From Escherichia coli (GTDB taxonomy: Bacteria; Pseudomonadota; Gammaproteobacteria; Enterobacterales; Enterobacteriaceae), in assembly GCF_965641715.1 (NCBI RefSeq), contig NZ_OZ282453.1: a stretch of 64,000 nucleotides of DNA; one strand, 5' to 3'. The notes beneath the pieces are model-generated. The model worked only from the letters and a program-made list of their open reading frames with translations, was not told where the DNA came from and did not search any database. Numbering within the stretch: position 1 is the first letter of the stretch; every line of letters starts with the position of its first letter. Shown in pieces: positions 6,996-41,141 of the stretch. Position numbers and translations under genes: made by a program.

Positions 6996-7017
6996 AAAAA
7001 ATAAGCCCGTGTAAGGG
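6996..7017. repeat. attL core: 22-bp direct repeat aaaaaataagcccgtgtaaggg shared with attR
   Basis: Exact repeat found at 6996..7017 and 38957..38978; matches the P2 att core as I recall it. Confidence 0.7.
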
Positions 7018-7101
7018 CGTTTATATACCCTTACAACAGGGGCTTTCAGCGGTGCAATGCGGGTTTGCGCGGCACGCAAGACCACTGAAAGCCATAATAA
7101 A

Positions 7102-8115
7102 CTACCCTACTGTGGACACTGTGTGGACACTCTGAGAGCCAACACCACCACGTAGAGGATTAAGCGTTATCGCGTCCTGTAGGTACTCAGGGGCGAAGTG
7201 CGCATATGTCATTGTCTGCTCAATTCTTGAATGCCCAAGTATTCTCTGAAGCGTGATAATGTTGCCTCCGTTTATCATAAAGTGCGTGGCGAAGCTGTGC
7301 CGCAATGCGTGCGTAGCCTGACCCGGTGGTAGGTCGGGTTTCAGCTCCTTCATTAGCCGTCTGAACGCGGGATAGTTAGCATCAGTGAACAGATAGCCAC
7401 GCTTACCCGTTGTGATCATTGTTGCCAGTTCCTCGGATATAGGAACGGTTCGCGGCTTGTTGGTTTTTGTCTTAACGAAAGTGACGCGATTTTGAATGAT
7501 ATTTTCCGCTTTCAGTTTTGCTGCCTCACTCCATCTCGCGCCGGTGCTAAGGCAAAGAATCGCAATTTTTTTATTATCACCGTCCACTTTTGACAGCAGA
7601 AGCGCGATCTCCTCTTGCGTCAGGTAGCCGGTTTCTGGCTTATCCTCTTTGAGTCTTTTAAGACCTCGGAAAGGATGCTCCCCGAAAAATAGCTCCGCAT
7701 CTATCAACGCGGTAAACATCCCGCTAAGACACGTTAAATCACGATTTATACTCGATGGCTTGATGCCTTGAGAACGCCGCACAGTGCTGTATTGGCTTAT
7801 CAATGACTTAGTAATCTGAAAGGCACAAGGGTCACTGGTTATCTTTGTGAACAACTCTAACTTGCCCAGGTAATCTCGGCCGTGAGTTTCATACTTGCCT
7901 TTCAGCTCCCACCAGATTTTTGTTAGCTCTGACAGATGCCGCTTATCTGTCGGTTTCGCCAACCATTTTTTGTTGTGATGGTTGTACTGGGTATGCTTCT
8001 CGAAAGCGATAGCTTCGCTTTTCTTGTCAAATTTCCTGCGGATGCGCTTTCCGTTGCGCCCTGCAGGTCTAATGTCCACTTCATAACGACCATCATCGAG
8101 CTTTTTAACAGACAT
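7102..8115 (-). CDS. int: P2-type tyrosine integrase (337 aa)
   Basis: Near-identical to remembered P2 Int; start set at MSVKKLDDGRYEV; catalytic R..HxxR..Y region present. Confidence 0.9.
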   Translation of the reverse strand: MSVKKLDDGRYEVDIRPAGRNGKRIRRKFDKKSEAIAFEKHTQYNHHNKKWLAKPTDKRHLSELTKIWWELKGKYETHGRDYLGKLELFTKITSDPCAFQITKSLISQYSTVRRSQGIKPSSINRDLTCLSGMFTALIDAELFFGEHPFRGLKRLKEDKPETGYLTQEEIALLLSKVDGDNKKIAILCLSTGARWSEAAKLKAENIIQNRVTFVKTKTNKPRTVPISEELATMITTGKRGYLFTDANYPAFRRLMKELKPDLPPGQATHALRHSFATHFMINGGNIITLQRILGHSRIEQTMTYAHFAPEYLQDAITLNPLRGGVGSQSVHTVSTVG

Positions 8116-8211
8116 AAAGCCTCCCGATGATGTTACTGCGTACTTCAATTTCCTGATTTAAATAACAAAAACTCACCGTGCATTTACTGCACAGATAAGC
8201 ACCGTAAATGG

Positions 8212-13443: not shown

Positions 13444-13462
13444 GGCGAGGCGGGGTAAGCGT
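13444..13462. other. cos-like 19-mer ggcgaggcggggtaagcgt (first 12 nt match the P2 cohesive-end sequence as recalled)
   Basis: Partial match to remembered P2 cos GGCGAGGCGGGGAAAGCAC; location between A region and Q is as expected. Confidence 0.3.
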
Positions 13463-13533
13463 TGCGCGCGCCTGTCAAAGATATTAAGATTGTCTCAAAA
13501 TCGATTGATTTTATTGAACTAATGGAGCTAGGA

Positions 13534-15090
13534 ATGATTAAGGGTATAGGTCTTCAAAACTTCAGGAGCTTTGTCAACAAAACGTTTATTGATTTAAAAC
13601 CAATTACAGTATTTGTTGGTAAGAACAGCAGTGGTAAAAGTTCCCTATTGCGCACATTTCCTTTACTTCGTCAATCTGTAGAAGAAAATACTACTGGCCC
13701 AATACTATGGTATGGGAGATATGTGGATTTTGGCGATTTTACAGATGTACTTTCCCGAAACTCTGAAAAAAAAGAAATTACGTTTAGTTTTTCACTCTCA
13801 ATTCCGCCAGAGGTTTCACAAAGATATACATATTATCGTTCTACTGATTTAGCAAAGCAACCAACAGATATTGAAGCAGAGTTAACTGTTTACTCTAAAG
13901 ATAAAAAAACAAAAACGAAAACGATTAAGCTTATATTGGCTGATTTAACAATATTTATTTCAATGGATGAGAGTAGTAATGTTAAATTACTCATTGAATC
14001 AGATGATAAAACAATAGAGCGTGATGGGATAATAGCTAAAAATCTTGGGCAGTTCATACCAAATCTAATTTTGAAGGGTAAGGAAGACAGTCCTCCTCCA
14101 AGCACATCATTCTATTTGAGACATTCTAGGCATGACAGGGCGTTAGAATTGTCATTTATTGATTCAGCGGCGAAATATATAAAGAAATATTTCCATACTA
14201 AATCTGATATAAATCAAGTGACAGAGGCATTCAAAAGAATTGGCTTTATACCCAAAGCGTACGCTAGTAAATTAGTTGCTTTTCTATTTAAGGAACAAAA
14301 AGTTTTTAGTAGAAACTTTGAATTTCAACATGATGAAATAATGAATGAGTTATATCCATTTATAATTGGATGGAATATTAATAATCTTATAGATATAATA
14401 AATACATCCTTGTCAGATTCATTCAGAAATGTAAAGTACATAGCTCCACTGCGTGCTACATCAGAAAGATTTTATCGTTTTCAAGATTTACAGGTTAATG
14501 AGATAGATCATACTGGTTCCAATCTTGCAATGCTTTTGAATTCATTAAGACCGGCTGATAAATCAAAATTTGAAGATTGGACAAAGTTAAATTTTGATTT
14601 CATTATCAAGGTTGAACAAAGTGGCTCTCACTTTGCAATTTTAATAAACACCGGTGAAAATAGTGAGAACTATAATGTTAGTGATATGGGGTTTGGTTAT
14701 TCTCAGGTTTTGCCGATAGTTACAGCCATTTGGCTTGAGACAGAACGTCGTGCTACCACGGTTAGAAAACCTATAACATTTATCATTGAGCAGCCAGAAT
14801 TGCATTTACATCCGTCATATCAGCATAATTTAGCAAGTATTTTTGCAAAAGTAGTAACTAAAGCAAAAGAAAATAATGTAGATTTGAAGATAATTTTTGA
14901 GACACATAGCCAGACCATGATTGAAGCACTTGGTGAATATATTGAGGAAAATGAAAGTCTTTCACAGGATGATATTTCAATACTGGTATTTGAAAAAGAT
15001 GATAAGCAGCAGACTATAGTTAAGAAATCTTATTTTGACGAGAATGGTTTCCTAAAAAATTGGCCGGTTGGCTTTTTCTCGGGTAAGTAG
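13534..15090 (+). CDS. OLD/AAA_21-like ABC ATPase (518 aa), first gene of cargo operon
   Basis: Start MIKGIGLQNFRSF with GGAG RBS; Walker A GKNSSGKSS (13618..13644); Walker B-like FIIEQPELHLHP (14779..14814); FETHS H-loop; AT-rich. Confidence 0.8.
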   Translation: MIKGIGLQNFRSFVNKTFIDLKPITVFVGKNSSGKSSLLRTFPLLRQSVEENTTGPILWYGRYVDFGDFTDVLSRNSEKKEITFSFSLSIPPEVSQRYTYYRSTDLAKQPTDIEAELTVYSKDKKTKTKTIKLILADLTIFISMDESSNVKLLIESDDKTIERDGIIAKNLGQFIPNLILKGKEDSPPPSTSFYLRHSRHDRALELSFIDSAAKYIKKYFHTKSDINQVTEAFKRIGFIPKAYASKLVAFLFKEQKVFSRNFEFQHDEIMNELYPFIIGWNINNLIDIINTSLSDSFRNVKYIAPLRATSERFYRFQDLQVNEIDHTGSNLAMLLNSLRPADKSKFEDWTKLNFDFIIKVEQSGSHFAILINTGENSENYNVSDMGFGYSQVLPIVTAIWLETERRATTVRKPITFIIEQPELHLHPSYQHNLASIFAKVVTKAKENNVDLKIIFETHSQTMIEALGEYIEENESLSQDDISILVFEKDDKQQTIVKKSYFDENGFLKNWPVGFFSGK

Positions 15091-15092
15091 TT

Positions 15093-16205
15093 ATGTTGAT
15101 TAATATCGAAAATGCGACACCTGAGAAGGTGCTAAATAACTCATTTGCCATAGCGGTTGAAAATATACTTCGGGCATTCGCTGAACAAAAACACTTGGTT
15201 ATAGGGGCAAGGGTTTTTTTTAAAACTATTATCAATGATCAAAGCGGGCTTTATAGCCTTTCATCAAAAAGTTACGCGCAAGAGGCTTTGTCGGGTCTAA
15301 CAGAGTACTATGCTATCTTGGATCAGGTCTCATTTTATGTATCTGTCGACTTTAATATTAGTGATAAATCATTTAAATGGGTTCAGATCGGTGAATCTTT
15401 TAAATTTGTTTGTGGTCCATTGTATTTTAATGACTCGGCACAATTGCAAAAAACGAAAATAGTATGTGAAAATCCTTTGGATTCTGATTTTTTTAAGGTT
15501 ATAGCGGCTCATTATGCCGAAGGTATTAACTTATCTCGCTGCGAAATGGGTTTTATCGCTCTAAATGGCGGTGGGGGCAGTACTAAGGATATATTCGAGC
15601 GTGCAATTCAAAATAATGAGATAGTTTTTTGTATTGTGGATAATGACAAAAAACATCCTGGAGCCCCATTCGGAGGTACTTGCTCACATTTTTTGGGCTC
15701 ACAAATTACTCGCTCAGGTTTCGTGGAGATTTTAGATGTACATGAAATAGAATCTCTAGTTCCTTTATCGACAATTGAAGATGTATTAAGAAGTCAAAGT
15801 CAATTGCAACAAAAAGAAAAATCTCTCATTTTCTTTAAGCATCTTTGCTCCGTAGATGAATCAGTAAAATTTTATATTGACCATAAAAAAGGTTTTGATT
15901 TTAAAACAGCCCTTGAACTCGATCGAAAACATGGTGCATATTGGCGTCCGATATTAAAGAAGCTTGATATAAAATATGATTGTGAGTATATCGAATCAAA
16001 ACGTTGTAGCTGCAACGCTGCTTGTGTAAGTTATGATGGTTTTGGAGAGAATTTGCTCAGCAATACATTGAAATATATACAAAAGGGAAGTTTAAAAAAA
16101 TATAATCCTCACCTAACACCAGTGCTTTCTGATAAATGGTATAAGTTAGGTAAGAATTTCTTTAGTTGGAGTTGTGGTCCATATAAAAAAGCAAGGGTTG
16201 GTTAA
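15093..16205 (+). CDS. Partner protein (370 aa) with Toprim-like signature, possible nuclease effector
   Basis: ATG 2 nt after ATPase stop; YAEG (15519..15524), GGGG, IVDNDKKHP (DND at 15639..15647); C-terminal Cys cluster; AT-rich. Confidence 0.65.
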   Translation: MLINIENATPEKVLNNSFAIAVENILRAFAEQKHLVIGARVFFKTIINDQSGLYSLSSKSYAQEALSGLTEYYAILDQVSFYVSVDFNISDKSFKWVQIGESFKFVCGPLYFNDSAQLQKTKIVCENPLDSDFFKVIAAHYAEGINLSRCEMGFIALNGGGGSTKDIFERAIQNNEIVFCIVDNDKKHPGAPFGGTCSHFLGSQITRSGFVEILDVHEIESLVPLSTIEDVLRSQSQLQQKEKSLIFFKHLCSVDESVKFYIDHKKGFDFKTALELDRKHGAYWRPILKKLDIKYDCEYIESKRCSCNAACVSYDGFGENLLSNTLKYIQKGSLKKYNPHLTPVLSDKWYKLGKNFFSWSCGPYKKARVG

Positions 16206-25038: not shown

Positions 25039-25791
25039 CTAACGTTCGAATATTATTATCACCCCAAGAGTGAGATGTATATGATCTTCTATTTGTTCAT
25101 ATTCTTCTTGGGTGTAAGAAAGTTTAGCTAATTCTTCTGTTGCTGAAAAGACATCAATGGATACTTGGACGCCTGATGGGATTTCATTTTTTATTTCATT
25201 AATGTATTTGTTGTATTTTCTTGTGATTAGTATTATTGCGCGATCTCTGTCGACGGTGGTTGAGCAATATCGATTGGATTTGCTGTTGTTATTGTGGAAT
25301 GATTCGAATGCGCAATTGAGGGCAAGTCTTAGATTTGATGATCCTGTATTTCCAGTGTGATTGAAGTATTCTATGTTTCTTCTTAAGTCTTCAAATAGTT
25401 TTGCCTTATTTGGATTGTCCCCTTTAACTTCAATAGCACATTTTGGATAATCAAACCCATTATTATTGCCTAGTATGGCAATGTCTATCCTACCTTTTCT
25501 GGTTGTGTTTGCTTTGATTCTTAGTATTTGCCTTGAAAATATTTTCCCCGGCGTTAGTCTTTTTGAAAATGGCACCGTTGAAGTTATAAAATCCCCTGTA
25601 TCATATTCAAAAATTATTTTCTCATCATCTATGTGAAAATTTTTACTATCAAGTAGGGCTTTGCCTATTGATACAGTAGCGACGTATTCGGTATTGATTT
25701 TACCACCAGAACTGAAATTCATTAAACGTGTGATTTTAGCTGCATTGGACATGCCATCCTTTACTGCTGTGATTATTTCGTAATTGTCCAT
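25039..25791 (-). CDS. AT-rich cargo protein (250 aa) with PD-(D/E)xK-like nuclease motif
   Basis: Opposite strand to flanking tail genes; motif GRIDIAIL..(17 aa)..AIEVKGDN (D103, E121, K123; 25423..25485); strongly AT-rich. Confidence 0.6.
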   Translation of the reverse strand: MDNYEIITAVKDGMSNAAKITRLMNFSSGGKINTEYVATVSIGKALLDSKNFHIDDEKIIFEYDTGDFITSTVPFSKRLTPGKIFSRQILRIKANTTRKGRIDIAILGNNNGFDYPKCAIEVKGDNPNKAKLFEDLRRNIEYFNHTGNTGSSNLRLALNCAFESFHNNNSKSNRYCSTTVDRDRAIILITRKYNKYINEIKNEIPSGVQVSIDVFSATEELAKLSYTQEEYEQIEDHIHLTLGVIIIFER

Positions 25792-35634: not shown

Positions 35635-36099
35635 ATGTTAATGGGGCTGGGCTTTTTCGTGTTTGAACGGCGCACCCTGCCGCATCAGTCAATGCAGTAT
35701 TCGAAGGACTACCGCTGGGTGTCAAATGACCGTATCGGAAAACCCCCGGCTTATCAGTATCTCGGGGAGGGGGAAACCTCGCGTACCCTGTCGGGCACGC
35801 TTTACCCTGAAATCACCGGCGGGCGTCTGTCACTGATGGCCATCGAACTGATGGCCGATGAGGGGCGCGCATGGCCGCTGATTGACGGAACCGGCATGAT
35901 CCACGGGATGTATGTCATCGATAAAGTGACTCACAACCACACCGAGTTATTCAGCGACGGCGCGGCTAAAAAAATCGAGTTTAGCCTGTCGCTTAAGCGG
36001 GTGGATGAATCCCTCGCGGCCATCTACGGCGACCTGAAAACGCAGGCTGATAATCTGGTCACGTCTGCCGGTAACTGGCTCGGGGGGCTGGCGGGATGA
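35635..36099 (+). CDS. Tail protein U-like
   Basis: 154 aa, position. Confidence 0.8.
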   Translation: MLMGLGFFVFERRTLPHQSMQYSKDYRWVSNDRIGKPPAYQYLGEGETSRTLSGTLYPEITGGRLSLMAIELMADEGRAWPLIDGTGMIHGMYVIDKVTHNHTELFSDGAAKKIEFSLSLKRVDESLAAIYGDLKTQADNLVTSAGNWLGGLAG

Positions 36100-37259
36100 T
36101 AACGGGAATGACTATTCAGGCCGGGGCGCGCATTGCTCCTGATTTTATGCTCACGCTCGGTGGCGCAGATATCACACAGAATTTCAGCGACCGGCTTATC
36201 GGGCTGACCATGACCGACAATCGCGGATTCGAGGCTGACCAGCTTGATATCGAGCTCGATGATACCGATGGACTGGTCGAGCTGCCGCCGCGCGGGGCAT
36301 CGCTGACCCTGTGGCTGGGCTGGCAGGGCTCGGCGCTGATTAACAAAGGGAGTTTTACGGTTGACGAAATCGAGCACCGGGGCGCGCCTGACAGGCTGAC
36401 TATCCGGGGACGCAGTGCGGATTTTCGCGGGACGCTGAACTCGCGCCGCGAGCAGTCATGGCACGACACCACGCTCGGGGTGATTGTCGAGACTATCGCG
36501 CAGCGTAACAAACTGACGGCCAGCGTGGCTGATACCCTGAAAGCTGTTGCTGTGCCGCATATTGACCAGTCTCAGGAATCCGACGCGGCGTTTTTGTCCC
36601 GACTGGCGGATCGCAACGGGGCAACGGTTTCGGTCAAGGCCGGGAAATTGTTATTCCTGAAAGCCGGTAGCGCGATGACGGCCAGTGGTAAGGCCATCCC
36701 GCAAATGACCGTCGAACGCGGCGACGGCGACCGGCATCAGTTTGCCATAGCCGACCGCGAGGCATACTCCGGCGTAACCGCTAAATGGCTGCACACCAGA
36801 GACCCGAAACCGCAAAAGCAAAAGGTGAAGCTCAAGCGCAAACCCAAAGAGCAGCACCTGCGTGCGCTGCAGCACCCGAAGGTTGCTAAAACATCGGCAA
36901 AGGCTAAAAAGAAGAAGGTGCAGGAAGCGCGGGAAGGTGAGTATATGGCCGGTGAGTCCGACAATGTTCTGGAACTCACGACCATCTACGCGACAAAGGC
37001 GCAGGCCATGCGCGCAGCTCAGGCAAAGTGGGACAGGATACAGCGTGGGGTGGCGGAGTTTTCGATCACGCTCGCCACTGGCCGCGCTGATTTATTTCCT
37101 GAAACGCCGGTGGCAGTGAAAGGCTTTAAGCGCGTTATAGACGAGCAGGCGTGGATAATCAGTCGTGTGGTACACAGCCTCAACGGGAGCGGCTTCACGA
37201 CGGGCTTAGAGCTTGAGGTTAAGGTTTCTGATGTGGAGTATGAAAGCGAGGAAGTTTAA
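36096..37259 (+). CDS. Tail/late control protein D-like
   Basis: 387 aa as P2 D. Confidence 0.85.
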   Translation: MITGMTIQAGARIAPDFMLTLGGADITQNFSDRLIGLTMTDNRGFEADQLDIELDDTDGLVELPPRGASLTLWLGWQGSALINKGSFTVDEIEHRGAPDRLTIRGRSADFRGTLNSRREQSWHDTTLGVIVETIAQRNKLTASVADTLKAVAVPHIDQSQESDAAFLSRLADRNGATVSVKAGKLLFLKAGSAMTASGKAIPQMTVERGDGDRHQFAIADREAYSGVTAKWLHTRDPKPQKQKVKLKRKPKEQHLRALQHPKVAKTSAKAKKKKVQEAREGEYMAGESDNVLELTTIYATKAQAMRAAQAKWDRIQRGVAEFSITLATGRADLFPETPVAVKGFKRVIDEQAWIISRVVHSLNGSGFTTGLELEVKVSDVEYESEEV

Positions 37260-37561: not shown

Positions 37562-37572
37562 CAAACGAGAAA

Positions 37573-37595
37573 GCCCCGCGAATGCGGGGCTTTTT
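37573..37595 (+). terminator. Rho-independent terminator after ogr (gccccgc-gaat-gcggggc + TTTTT)
   Basis: Perfect 7-bp GC stem followed by T5. Confidence 0.65.
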
Positions 37596-37866
37596 GCAAC
37601 TTTTAGATCAGTTATGTTAAGTACATTTCCGTCGGCAAAGTGCCAGGAGCGGGTTCTAGAGAGTGACTAACGTTAGTTATATGTGTAAAATTCCTTAAAA
37701 ATAAGAAGGATATATATCCATGACAGCAATTGCATATTGGATTAACTGAGAATCAATTGAGAAATTTTTGGGGGGCAAAAAATAAACTAGCTAATTAAAT
37801 TTTTATAAATAACGAATATAAGACTGCAAGCCATTTAACAAAAGTTTATAAATAAAGGAGTCAGTT

Positions 37867-38718
37867 TTGAACAATATCCCCATATCTACTCAATGGACTT
37901 TAGACGCTACGGGTGAAGTTGGACGCTCATCAGTAAATTCTGTTTATATGATTATATGTCCTGCGACAGGCTCGAAAGGATCTGGTTTTTTAATAGATAA
38001 TGGGTTAATAGTAACGAACGAGCATGTTATCACTGGATGCTCTACAAATCAGATTTTCGCAATTTCAGCTTATGGACAGAAGATTCCAATTTCTCAAAAA
38101 TGGATAGATTCTGATCGCGATTTAGCTGTGCTGAGACCTGCCATTACCCAGACTGGTGGGCTAAGTATTGTTAAGGATAATGATCTTAAAGTTGGTGAAT
38201 CAGTAACAACTTGGGGATACCCATTAGGATACAACGGTCCTGCACCGTTACTATCCGTTGGTTATCTAGCAGGATTTAACTCATACCAAACCGCCAAGGG
38301 ACAAAAAAAACATCTAGTGGTAAATGGGGCATTTAACTCAGGAAATTCTGGTGGAGCTCTTTTAAAAGCTTCAGATAATAAAGTAATAGGTATTGTAGTG
38401 AGTAAGCATGCTCCTATCAGTCAATACCATCAATCAGCTATTGAAGCTTTGTCTGAAAATATGAGTGGCGTCACCTATACCGCTACTAATGACGCTGGAG
38501 AAACTAAAAGTTTTGTAGAATCTCAAATTGTAGCAGAATTATTGATTCATATGAGAAGTCTAACTCAAGTTATGATTGGAGAAGCAATTGCAGCAGAGGA
38601 ATTACTTTCGATGCTTAGCGAAATTGACTTGAGTCCACCACAATCTATGTCAAGAAATGCCTTATGTCATTGCGGGAGTGGAAAACGCTTCAAAGAATGT
38701 CATGGAAAGATATCCTAG
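37867..38718 (+). CDS. AT-rich cargo: trypsin-like (S1/chymotrypsin fold) serine protease with C-terminal SEC-C zinc-binding motif
   Basis: TTG start with strong aaaggag RBS 7 nt upstream; catalytic-triad-like TNEHV / DLAVL / GNSGGAL; C-terminal CHCGSGKRFKECHG (38662..38703). Confidence 0.65.
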   Translation: MNNIPISTQWTLDATGEVGRSSVNSVYMIICPATGSKGSGFLIDNGLIVTNEHVITGCSTNQIFAISAYGQKIPISQKWIDSDRDLAVLRPAITQTGGLSIVKDNDLKVGESVTTWGYPLGYNGPAPLLSVGYLAGFNSYQTAKGQKKHLVVNGAFNSGNSGGALLKASDNKVIGIVVSKHAPISQYHQSAIEALSENMSGVTYTATNDAGETKSFVESQIVAELLIHMRSLTQVMIGEAIAAEELLSMLSEIDLSPPQSMSRNALCHCGSGKRFKECHGKIS

Positions 38719-38888
38719 TAAGTACTTATATCAGTCTGATAATGGCTCTTCAAATACAAAAGACTTCACTTACTCTGCCGTCATCTCTGCTCCTCGCTTA
38801 TTGCAGACGGTCAAAAGCTTACAAGCTGTTGACTAGATGTGTTCTTACATTGTCAGTTAAAACAAAAGCCCCGCAAATGCGGGGCTTT

Positions 38889-38911
38889 TTGTATCGATGT
38901 GGTCAATGTGT
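38889..38911 (+). terminator. Rho-independent terminator after protease cargo (gccccgc-aaat-gcggggc + TTTTT), near-duplicate of the ogr terminator
   Basis: Same stem sequence as 37573..37595. Confidence 0.65.
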
Positions 38912-38956
38912 GGACATTGATAGAAATAAATCCATTTATTTCAGTAAGTTACATGC

Positions 38957-38983
38957 AAAAAATAAGCCCGTGTAAGGGAGATT
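38957..38983. repeat. attR core aaaaaataagcccgtgtaagggagatt (matches the 27-bp P2 att core as recalled), overlapping cyaR 3' end
   Basis: Direct repeat with attL; identity to remembered P2 attP core. Confidence 0.75.
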
Positions 38984-39043
38984 ACACAGGCTAAGGAGGT
39001 GGTTCCTGGTACAGCTAGCATTTTATGGGTTATGTTTTTCAGC
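38957..39043 (-). ncRNA. cyaR: CyaR (RyeE) Hfq-dependent sRNA
   Basis: Reverse complement reads GCTGAAAAACATAACCCATAAAATGCTAGCTGTACCAGGAACCACCTCCTTAGCCTGTGTAATCTCCCTTACACGGGCTTATTTTTT, matching remembered CyaR. Confidence 0.75.
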
Positions 39044-39077
39044 GAAGCGGATGATAACCTTAATAAATGCAGCTGTA

Positions 39078-39127: not shown

Positions 39128-40489
39128 TCACTTACCGTGGGGGTTACGCGTGGTTTCCCCGGAGAAATTACGCATCAGCAGCGCGTAATTTAGCTCAAGA
39201 TCCTGCGGCACCGGGAGCCACACAGTATAACCATCGCCTGGTGCTATCGGCATAGCTTCGCCTTTGGCGTTTTCCATGTGCTCAAGGGTAAAGTTAATGT
39301 TGCCTTGCGGCGTCATCAGCTCAAGGCTGTCGCCAACGGAGAATTTATTTTTCACCGCTACCGCCGCGAGGTCCCCCTTGCGCTCACCGGTAAACTCACC
39401 AACAAACTGCTGGCGGTCAGAAACCGAATAACCGTATTCGTAGTTCTGATAATCGTCGTGAGTATGACGACGCAGGAAACCTTCGGTATAGCCACGATGC
39501 GCCAGACCTTCCAGAGTTTCTAGCAGGCTGGTATCGAACGGTTTGCCCGCAGCGGCATCATCGATAGCTTTGCGGTAAACCTGTGCGGTGCGTGCGCAAT
39601 AGTAGAAAGATTTAGTACGGCCTTCGATTTTCAGCGAATGCACGCCCATTTTGGTCAGGCGTTCTACATGGGCGATGGCGCGCAGATCTTTCGAGTTCAT
39701 GATGTAAGTGCCGTGCTCATCTTCAAACGCGGTCATATACTCGCCCGGACGCTGGGCTTCTTCGATCATAAACACTTTGTCGGTTGGCGCGCCGATACCC
39801 AGCGTCGGCTCAACATTTTGCACCGGAATCGGCTCGTACTTGTGTACGATGTTGCCAACATCATCTTCTTTCCCTTCCTGGACGTTGTACTCCCAGCGGC
39901 AGGCGTTGGTGCAGGTACCCTGGTTCGGATCGCGCTTGTTGATATAGCCAGAGAGCAGGCAGCGACCGGAGTAGGCCATGCACAGTGCGCCGTGAACGAA
40001 GATCTCGATCTCCATATCCGGCACCTGATTGCGGATCTCTTCAATCTCTTCCAGCGACAGCTCGCGAGAGAGGATCACGCGGGTCAGGCCCATTTGCTGC
40101 CAGAATTTCACCGTTGCCCAGTTTACGGCGTTAGCCTGCACCGAGAGGTGGATCGGCATTTCAGGGAAGTGCTCACGCACCAGCATAATCAGCCCTGGAT
40201 CGGACATAATCAGCGCATCCGGCCCCATTTCCACCACCGGTTTCAGGTCACGGATAAAGGTTTTCAGCTTGGCGTTGTGCGGTGCAATGTTGACCACGAC
40301 ATAAAACTTTTTCCCCAGCGCGTGGGCTTCATTGATGCCGAGCTGAAGATTTTCGTGGTTGAATTCGTTGTTGCGCACACGCAGGGAGTAACGCGGCTGG
40401 CCCGCATAAACAGCATCTGCGCCATAAGCGAAAGCGTAACGCATATTTTTCAGCGTTCCCGCCGGGGAAAGGAGTTCCGGTTTAAACAT
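39128..40489 (-). CDS. yegQ: Peptidase U32-family protein YegQ (TrhP)
   Basis: 453-aa ORF matching remembered YegQ; synteny. Confidence 0.85.
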   Translation of the reverse strand: MFKPELLSPAGTLKNMRYAFAYGADAVYAGQPRYSLRVRNNEFNHENLQLGINEAHALGKKFYVVVNIAPHNAKLKTFIRDLKPVVEMGPDALIMSDPGLIMLVREHFPEMPIHLSVQANAVNWATVKFWQQMGLTRVILSRELSLEEIEEIRNQVPDMEIEIFVHGALCMAYSGRCLLSGYINKRDPNQGTCTNACRWEYNVQEGKEDDVGNIVHKYEPIPVQNVEPTLGIGAPTDKVFMIEEAQRPGEYMTAFEDEHGTYIMNSKDLRAIAHVERLTKMGVHSLKIEGRTKSFYYCARTAQVYRKAIDDAAAGKPFDTSLLETLEGLAHRGYTEGFLRRHTHDDYQNYEYGYSVSDRQQFVGEFTGERKGDLAAVAVKNKFSVGDSLELMTPQGNINFTLEHMENAKGEAMPIAPGDGYTVWLPVPQDLELNYALLMRNFSGETTRNPHGK

Positions 40490-40591: not shown

Positions 40592-40888
40592 TTAGCTCCA
40601 GTGTAAATGTCTGGTGGCGTCCTGGTTTTGGTTAAGGATACGAATGACGATAATTTCCCCTGGTGATTGCAGGAAATAAATTACGTGGCGTTCAAAAGGA
40701 AGAACAAAAATACCTTCGCCTAATTCAGGTCTGGGCGTACCTATATTATTGTTACTCAGAATCTGGAGAACGTCTGAAAGATGTTCCACATATCTGTCGG
40801 CTTGTGGTTCGCCGAAATGGTGATAACTGTAATACCAGATGCCTTCTAAATCTTCATTGGCTTTTGGCATGAGTTTAATAATACGCAC
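40592..40888 (-). CDS. ParE/RelE-superfamily toxin (98 aa)
   Basis: ParE-like pattern (EDLEGIWYY..., GTPRPELGEGIFVLPFERHVIYF..IIVIRILNQNQD); immediately downstream of antitoxin. Confidence 0.7.
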   Translation of the reverse strand: MRIIKLMPKANEDLEGIWYYSYHHFGEPQADRYVEHLSDVLQILSNNNIGTPRPELGEGIFVLPFERHVIYFLQSPGEIIVIRILNQNQDATRHLHWS

Positions 40889-40889
40889 A

Positions 40890-41141
40890 TTATTTCCTTA
40901 TCCCTGCTTTCACCTTCCGTAAAAACGCGTCCTTTTCCCACGGCTGAGCTTCACCACTACTCAACCCTTCTGCAAGCATGTCACGTAACGCTTGCAGGCG
41001 AGACTCTGCTTGCTTTTCTCGAAGTAAGCGCAGTGACTCACGGATCACTTCGCTTTGGGTGCGATAGTCGCCGGATTCAATTAAGGACTCGATAAATTCA
41101 CGCAACTCATCGCCGAGATCAACCGTCATCGTTCTGGCCAT
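40890..41141 (-). CDS. ParD-like (RHH/CopG-type) antitoxin (83 aa)
   Basis: N-terminal ribbon-helix-helix-like MARTMTVDLGDELREFIESLIESGDYRTQSEVIRESLRLLRE; upstream of toxin with 1-nt gap. Confidence 0.7.
   Translation of the reverse strand: MARTMTVDLGDELREFIESLIESGDYRTQSEVIRESLRLLREKQAESRLQALRDMLAEGLSSGEAQPWEKDAFLRKVKAGIRK

Follow-up and report, generated by a model that had tools for sequence, protein, structure and literature searches.

The 64,000-nucleotide stretch of Escherichia coli DNA analysed here (the window; contig NZ_OZ282453.1 of assembly GCF_965641715.1) contained a P2-like prophage of about 32 kb, bounded by two copies of the attachment site (att). At the right end of this prophage, between the late-activator gene ogr and attR, lay a cargo gene for a serine protease. 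The cargo was flanked by two copies of the ogr terminator (27 nt, 96% identical), and the DNA between them measured 1268 bp (37597-38864) with a GC content of 37%, against 52% for the prophage. The region appears to be a moron, a self-contained, horizontally acquired cassette, about 1.2 kb long, in which a single gene is accompanied by an upstream region of its own and a terminator.

The cargo gene started with a TTG, 6 nt downstream of AAGGAG. Inspection of the open reading frame (ORF) showed no start codon between the preceding stop and this TTG, so that a longer N-terminus is impossible. The identical coding sequence in RefSeq was WP_001059829.1, annotated as a “trypsin-like peptidase domain-containing protein”. 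The protein contained the motifs TNEHV (His53, nt 38023-25), DLAVL (Asp85, nt 38119-21) and GNSGGAL (Ser161, nt 38347-49). In alignment with DegQ these three residues fell on its catalytic ones, in the order His, Asp, Ser with GNSGG, and none of 47 aligned homologs departed from the triad. The AlphaFold model based on the 47-homolog alignment had a pLDDT of 83, and Foldseek matched it to the protease domains of DegS, DegP, Deg1 and Rv3671c (E about 1e-11, probability 1.00); a chymotrypsin-like double beta-barrel fold is predicted on this basis. No PDZ domain was found by Pfam, and there was no signal peptide or membrane anchor, the N-terminus not being hydrophobic. The gene product is predicted to be an active cytoplasmic, PDZ-less serine protease of the HtrA type.

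The secondary structure of the model divided the C-terminal 100 residues into a helix/hairpin insert and a SEC-C domain. The insert (residues about 181-240) was the most variable segment among close orthologs, with a nonsynonymous difference (pN) of 0.12-0.13 vs 0.02-0.07 elsewhere, and it was followed by an invariant LTQVMIGEA strand, in which Q234, V235, I237, G238 and E239 did not vary in the 47-homolog alignment. Structure comparison of the insert gave no informative match apart from family members. The ratio of nonsynonymous to synonymous substitution (dN/dS) was 0.12-0.18 against the Serratia, Klebsiella, IMG/VR and Yersinia copies, values indicative of purifying selection. The ORF is not a chance one: it is long for AT-rich DNA, its domain E-values are strong, its triad is invariant and its dN/dS is low.

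The last 22 residues of the protein, RNALCHCGSGKRFKECHGKIS, contained the SEC-C motif CHCGSGKRFKECHG, with Cys267, Cys269, Cys278 and His279 as putative metal ligands and Ser271 and Phe275 as further conserved residues. The ligand pattern CxCx8CH was present as C267-H-C269-GSGKRFKE-C278-H279. A phmmer search matched the tail to solved SecA C-terminal domains (1TM6, 1SX0 and 1OZB, the last a SecB-bound SecA peptide; E 5e-6 to 3e-5), and 12 of 19 residues were identical to E. coli SecA as counted by eye from the alignment. The tail also matched the C-terminal peptide of YchJ, with NCBIfam matches to the SEC-C ends of YchJ-type proteins and methionine aminopeptidases, and SEC-C tails were likewise present on CBASS E2 models in PADLOC. 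In SecA itself, the module of this type contacts SecB and the ribosome. Metal-binding domains of the SecA-like kind interact with SecB and with ribosomes (PMC6620043; 10.1101/613315), and a conserved serine and an aromatic residue belong to their motif (10.1101/613315). The original prediction, made from the DNA letters without database searches, had described a 283-aa protein with a chymotrypsin-fold triad and a C-terminal zinc finger of the SecA type; the ORF, the three triad motifs and the C-terminal motif all lay where it had placed them, and the Pfam search it had proposed returned both Trypsin_2 and SEC-C. Table 1 shows the features of the locus.

Table 1. Features at the two ends of the P2-like prophage and in the cargo region (positions in the window)
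Feature	Position	Strand	Remarks
attL, diverged copy of the P2 att core (AAAAAATAAGCCCGTGTAAGGGCGTTT)	6996-7022	+	Prophage left end; integrase adjoining
Integrase ORF	7102-8148	-	Adjoins attL
gpD tail/late control protein, last structural gene	36096-37259	+	PHROG 52, 2.8e-174; RefSeq “phage late control D family protein”
ogr, zinc-finger late-gene activator, 73 aa	37340-37561	+	NCBIfam PRK09678, 1.4e-40; Ogr_Delta by Pfam at identical loci
ogr terminator copy 1 (AAAGCCCCGCGAATGCGGGGCTTTTTG), left boundary of the cargo	37570-37596	+	27-nt direct repeat; terminator-like on scan; counterpart of the annotated P2 terminator
Upstream non-coding part of the cassette	37640-37866	+	Conserved with the gene in other hosts
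Promoter-like site GTGACT-17-TAAAAT	37663-37691	+	Weak consensus match; in the upstream stretch common to three hosts
Cargo gene	37867-38718	+	283-aa predicted cytoplasmic S1 (HtrA-like, PDZ-less) serine protease with SecA-like C-terminal tail
Trypsin_2 (PF13365) protease domain	37978-38394	+	Residues 38-176; Pfam 1.5e-19
Family-specific helix/beta-hairpin/helix insert	38407-38586	+	Residues about 181-240; secondary structure of the model
SEC-C (PF02810)/SecA-like metal-binding domain	38653-38709	+	Residues 263-281; Pfam 6.2e-7
Downstream non-coding part of the cargo	38719-38864	+	Serratia/Klebsiella homology stops at about 38757-38798
ogr terminator copy 2 (AAAGCCCCGCAAATGCGGGGCTTTTTG), canonical copy, adjoins att arm	38865-38891	+	Serves the cargo gene as terminator
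att left arm (equivalent of P2 Int P-arm and IHF sites)	38892-38956	+	82% identical to the P2 terminator-to-core segment
attR core	38957-38983	+	Exact match to the 27-bp P2 attP core
Host small RNA CyaR (RyeE)	38960-39045	-	Rfam RF00112, 100.7 bits, E 2.5e-20
Host gene yegQ/trhP, right chromosomal flank	39128-40489	-	RefSeq annotation in identical loci

The Ogr protein was 95.9% identical to Ogr of Enterobacter phage ENT4 and 72.6% identical to that of P2. Terminator copy 2 was identical to the single copy in phage ENT4, and its counterpart in the E. coli prophage EC11 (AAAACCCCGC...) differed from it by one base. In reference P2, an Int P-arm site begins 4 bp after the ogr terminator and is followed by an IHF site, with the attP core about 68 bp on and nothing else between terminator and core. 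Copy 2 adjoined an intact P-arm/IHF segment, so the insertion spares everything needed for integration and excision. The att core coincided with the CyaR terminator hairpin, which means that integration regenerates the 3' end of this small RNA. The reading of a foreign AT-rich insert at a place where P2 has next to nothing was thus borne out by the composition of the cargo, its flanking repeats and the P2 map. The span given for the insert (37597-38912) was right at its start and too long at its end, which lay about 20 bp past terminator copy 2; the cargo ends at 38864.

No other credible ORF was found on either strand between the two terminators. A 103-aa ORF at 38664-38975 was rejected as a partner gene; it crosses the terminator and the att arm and extends past the end of homology at 38757-38798. 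A 9-codon upstream ORF was rejected as a gene, being deleted in the Klebsiella copy, and a 19-nt inverted repeat (37707/38698) was set aside, its upstream arm not being conserved in Serratia or Klebsiella. The 5' leader had no Rfam match and folded no better than shuffled sequences (z +0.82). No integron attC-like repeat, matching hairpin or terminal inverted repeats were seen around the E. coli cargo, and for want of an attC site it was not classed as an integron gene cassette. An upstream LexA-type operator was looked for on account of the umuD/umuC neighbours of homologs in Klebsiella and IMG/VR, and none was seen by eye (no formal scan).

The cargo DNA was present in 34 of 5426 complete E. 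coli genomes (0.6%). In all of them it was single-copy, chromosomal, at least 99.8% identical and carried by this prophage, with the gene intact in 34 of 34. In the wider set of assemblies it always stood in the order D, ogr, protease, yegQ, with or without a neighbouring ParDE module. The exact protein was recorded in thousands of public assemblies (3785 index blocks), and the E. coli carriers included many carbapenemase- and extended-spectrum beta-lactamase (ESBL)-associated clinical isolates. A few database entries of the gene were frameshifted or split. In E. coli WCHEC005784 an IS150 lay between ogr and the protease gene (L001, 2584-3953), with terminator copy 1 undetectable there; this insertion may change expression of the cargo. 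The original prediction had named a housekeeping protease unrelated to phage as the case that would overturn it; this is excluded by the occurrence in 34 of 5426 genomes, always in this prophage, and on mobile elements elsewhere.

Outside E. coli, positions 37640-38798 of the window were 90% identical to a solitary chromosomal islet of Serratia marcescens and 86% identical to the end of a lambdoid prophage of Klebsiella michiganensis, non-coding flanks included. The DNA homology with Serratia and Klebsiella extends beyond the ORF, and the moving unit is therefore about 1.16 kb long, with some 230 bp ahead of the gene and 40-80 bp behind it. The TTG start was kept in six genera (37867 in the window; orthologous starts in loci L036, L002, L010, L012 and L005). 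Synonymous sites were saturated in the most distant ortholog pairs, yet the TTG was conserved, which suggests selection for weak translation initiation. Megablast and tblastn searches of 50,697 phage and 72,556 plasmid records returned no relative of the cargo, while the IMG/VR search gave 7 loci with relatives.

Relatives at 65-90% identity with the SEC-C tail all came from Gammaproteobacteria where the source was named, and they stood in varied mobile contexts. In Vibrio parahaemolyticus the homolog was a one-gene integron cassette with attC-type repeats on both sides (L005, 7855-7986 and 8849-8978; 23 copies in the locus), and it occurred in several differing neighbourhoods, also with Abi_alpha, KAP NTPase, zeta toxin, T5orf172 and GIY-YIG proteins. 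In a second V. parahaemolyticus genome it directly followed the integrase gene of a P2-related prophage, lying between int and a cI-type repressor gene, a locus reported by Rousset et al. as a defence hotspot of Vibrionaceae (PMC9122126). The Klebsiella homolog adjoined umuDC at the end of a prophage, and beyond umuDC came a TIR-domain protein. The Yersinia homolog lay in a lambdoid prophage between the lysis and replication modules. Myovirus-type contigs of about 39 kb in IMG/VR carried an 89% relative as their terminal gene, and a 40% relative, also in IMG/VR, lay between terminase and antiterminator. The Serratia copy stood among ordinary chromosomal genes.

Distant relatives, one of them on an archaeal-type contig, had 53-58% identity. 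A homolog 57% identical was found at 7001-7783 of the JGI metagenome contig Ga0133939_1000382 (L039), in an integrated element near DUF4145; the contig carried the archaeal-type genes PriX, ATP-dependent DNA ligase and SSV-type integrase, which points to a possible inter-domain transfer of the protease family on mobile elements. A further member (L013, 5196-12453) had a Cas1 gene on one side and a family-B DNA polymerase on the other, an arrangement that looks like a casposon, and another distant member lay beside IS91 and a group II intron. No conserved neighbour gene was found in any context examined; the neighbours differed each time and the homolog was always solitary.

The slot after ogr varied among P2-like elements. 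A composite of the empty site (3' end of D, ogr, terminator, attR, cyaR and yegQ) was uninterrupted in 1123 of the 5426 complete E. coli genomes; the majority of such empty junctions were ogrK remnants at 86% identity, and a few were true prophages at 92%. The K-12-type ogrK remnant occupied the same att/cyaR site in about 1100 E. coli genomes. Prophage EC11 carried an unrelated insert of 742 bp and 37% GC at the same place between two terminator copies, whose 86-aa protein had no Pfam or PADLOC match; the terminator copies of EC11 lay at 1987-2011 and 2754-2778 of L016, the upstream one being the more degenerate. Two unrelated cargos with a duplicated ogr terminator suggest a recurrent mechanism of insertion or exchange that uses the terminator hairpin. 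The Klebsiella P2-like phage Kp4847-2 had a 62-aa ORF and a 257-aa reverse transcriptase after ogr (L020, 1526-2456). The reverse transcriptase carried an FMDD motif and matched retron RT_VI best in PADLOC (1.1e-17), the 62-aa ORF resembled a membrane protein on inspection by eye only, and the pair is a candidate for a compact retron-like system at the same phage position. Klebsiella phage 3LV2017 had two other ORFs after ogr, and a P2-like element at ssrA had a frameshifted gene there. The check suggested in the original prediction, whether neighbouring P2-like prophages carry other cargo between ogr and attR, came out positive for EC11, and the Klebsiella phages had other genes after ogr.

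A third P2-like hotspot, between the tail protein and CI, has been reported by iLund4u (10.1101/2024.10.15.618418), and the cargo region falls inside it. The two classic P2 hotspot papers made no mention of the ogr-att slot or of a protease cargo, and the word “ogr” was absent from PMC9122126. The variability of the post-ogr site is known already in general terms, while the terminator duplication and this cargo are undescribed in the hotspot literature examined.

From the genomic context and the domain relatives, the most likely function is that of an anti-phage or anti-mobile-genetic-element protease expressed by the lysogen, which we put forward tentatively and at somewhat short of an even chance. 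The cargo gene would be transcribed in the lysogen independently of the phage late genes, because terminator copy 1 would insulate it from ogr and late transcription, and its expression would be kept low, as the conserved TTG start suggests. By cleaving phage or host proteins, the protease would shield the lysogen, or any host bearing the cassette, from other phages or mobile elements. Its site or target of action would be set by the C-terminal tail, which varies in the family: SEC-C in this protein, TPR or no such module in relatives. The SEC-C tail would most probably dock the protease on SecB or the ribosome exit region. In PADLOC the best protease-domain matches were to proteases associated with defence, namely RT-Protease_XI (7e-21), LmuA (5e-7) and HamA (8e-7), with PDC-M35A and Avs1b also matched.

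A bolder form of the defence reading would make the SEC-C clade a new single-protein immune or exclusion factor. Stationed on SecB or on the ribosome exit and Sec-targeting route by its SecA-mimicking tail, it would intercept phage proteins during synthesis or export, or shut down host translation or secretion once it senses infection. The exchangeable ends seen among family members (signal peptide, SEC-C, TPR) would be address labels directing one proteolytic core to different compartments or targets. We consider this doubtful.

Several points weigh against the defence reading. No PADLOC model was matched over its full length, the NCBIfam matches were far under their cut-offs (best MarP with 60.4 bits against a cut-off of 250 and HtrA with 54.9 against 470), and the PHROGs matches were at the domain level only. 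Promoter-like sites were not enriched over shuffled sequences. Docking on SecB or the ribosome is read from the identity of the motif only, and integron cassettes and prophage ends carry non-defence cargo too. In retron XI and trypsin-metallo-beta-lactamase (MBL) systems, the protease is joined to a sensor and switches on a proenzyme effector encoded next to it (PMC12799240; 10.1101/2025.11.14.688446; PMC7736814), whereas the cargo protease has neither a fused sensor (reverse transcriptase, HamA, Avs or LmuA) nor an effector.

The composition of the wider family weighs in the same direction. A family profile searched against 1.84 billion cluster representatives at a cut-off of E<=1e-30 found 217; the family is small and tight, as so few representatives among so many show. 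A signal-peptide-like or transmembrane-like extension was present in 44 of the 77 representatives with the N-terminus covered and absent in 22. Among the 120 closest homologs, 22 had a signal peptide (SEC-C in 0 of 22), 26 had SEC-C (signal peptide in 0 of 26), 67 had neither, and 5 lacked SEC-C and had an N-terminus that was not assessable. Two members had an extended C-terminal tail in place of SEC-C, and the tail of P0105 gave weak TPR matches by Pfam (TPR_12, 2e-4). A conserved core of N-terminal helix, protease, helix/hairpin insert and LTQVMIGEA strand thus carries interchangeable end modules. The ancestral family was probably extracytoplasmic, and its ancestral role may have been extracytoplasmic proteolysis unrelated to phages. 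Since the family mostly bears signal peptides, the case for defence is limited to the SEC-C clade, which is predicted to be a cytoplasmic branch on mobile elements and to which the protein of the window belongs.

A different reading takes the protease as a lysogenic-conversion or fitness factor, not a defence, which would remodel host physiology, for example by degrading a regulator, by clearing misfolded or Sec-stalled proteins, or by helping stress tolerance or colonisation; mobile elements would carry it for its benefit to the host. The HtrA-like core, from a family of protein quality control, and the mostly secreted wider family agree with such a role, as do the compatibility of a SecA-like tail with work at the Sec pathway or the ribosome, the Serratia copy among chromosomal genes and the many clinical carriers. 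We nevertheless hold it to be somewhat unlikely, given that the gene is sporadic, always on or beside mobile DNA, recurrent in documented defence hotspots and confined to 0.6% of complete E. coli genomes, and that it lacks the PDZ domain by which quality-control proteases of the HtrA type sense their substrates.

A function in the service of the P2-like phage itself (for example anti-defence, processing of a phage protein or modulation of the lysis-lysogeny decision) is improbable. The terminator separates the cargo from late transcription, P2 has nothing at this position, tblastn found no homolog in the 50,697 phage records, and the same cassette occurs without a phage in the integron array and the Serratia islet; these observations are set against a prophage location adjoining the late activator ogr and the homologs in several unrelated prophages. 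Still less probable is a selfish toxin or addiction-type element, in which a toxic protease at low expression stabilises its carrier: the weak conserved TTG and the single-gene mobile cassette would fit, integron arrays being rich in toxin genes, but neither strand of the cassette holds an antitoxin-like partner ORF and the gene was intact in every complete carrier genome. Decaying passenger DNA without current function, despite the rarity in E. coli and the few broken database entries, is hardly credible in view of the dN/dS across four genera, the invariant triad and the identity kept with distant relatives, one on an archaeal-type contig.

If the protease is protective, it would be a compact one-gene system of about 0.85 kb of coding sequence which, unlike known protease defences, works without a fused sensor or a proenzyme partner, and a SecA-like metal-binding tail would for the first time be given a function outside SecA. 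Its occurrence in many clinical E. coli isolates could matter for the host range of phage therapy. Whatever the function, the terminator-duplication slot lets P2-like phages take up cargo without harm to the Int/IHF arm, and the stretch from the ogr terminator to the att core is a precise anchor for mining further cargo. No mention of SEC-C with a trypsin-like protease in a defence context, or of WP_001059829.1, was found in the literature searched, and a preprint of an integron screen did not mention a protease; a homologous cassette may have been tested earlier in integron-defence screens.

Other features of the window were also recorded. The P2 A-Q (tin/old) hotspot (13462-16205, + strand) carried a two-gene candidate defence system, made up of a 542-aa ABC/OLD-type ATPase (PADLOC NsnB 4.9e-55, PDC-M55A 7.5e-46, AriA 7e-31) and a 370-aa partner with a weak PDC-M55B match (2e-4) and no NCBIfam match. 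A 250-aa ORF at 25039-25791 (- strand) lay on the opposite strand within the tail gene block and had no NCBIfam match; its position is presumably that of P2 orf30, another variable spot. On the host side, a RelE/ParE-ParD toxin-antitoxin pair (40592-41141, - strand) was present between yegQ and yegP. This pair was absent in some hosts with the identical prophage end (L032), which places the prophage in at least two chromosomal backgrounds.

Among known systems, HtrA, DegP, DegS, DegQ and MarP (Rv3671c) share with the cargo protease the fold, the His-Asp-Ser order and GNSGG (E about 1e-10 to 1e-11). Among solved proteins, HtrA-type enzymes matched best in both sequence and structure, with the NCBIfam MarP and HtrA matches covering the protease domain only. 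Unlike this family, the cargo protease has a family-specific N-terminal helix, a C-terminal helix/hairpin insert and a SecA-like tail, and it is a mobile and not a core gene. Membership in HtrA (S1C) was rejected, with no PDZ, no export signal and scores far under the cut-offs for HtrA, DegP, DegS and MarP.

The retron type XI reverse transcriptase-protease and the trypsin-MBL (“Canu”-type) modules of Hachiman, AVAST and Lamassu resemble the cargo in the protease domain and in the setting of a mobile defence hotspot. Membership in these sensor-fused systems was rejected: the 283-aa protein has the 22-residue SEC-C as its only other module, and no MBL nuclease, Pepco or other effector is adjacent. 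Lit, the zinc metalloprotease encoded by e14 that cleaves EF-Tu during T4 infection, is an abortive-infection factor and is alike in concept, as a single prophage-encoded protease, but differs in catalytic class; no sequence relationship to Lit was seen in any search. The C-terminal metal-binding domain of SecA and the SecA-like domains of YecA, YchJ and some methionine aminopeptidases have their ligand pattern, with the conserved Ser and aromatic residue, in common with the cargo tail, whereas here the domain is joined to a protease. The cargo hotspots of P2-like phages (tin/old at A-Q, Z/fun, and tail protein-CI) hold, as here, variable AT-rich cargo, putatively a single transcription unit, between conserved phage features; unlike those described, the slot seen in the window is bounded by a duplicated ogr terminator and the P arm of att and is usually empty in E. 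coli.

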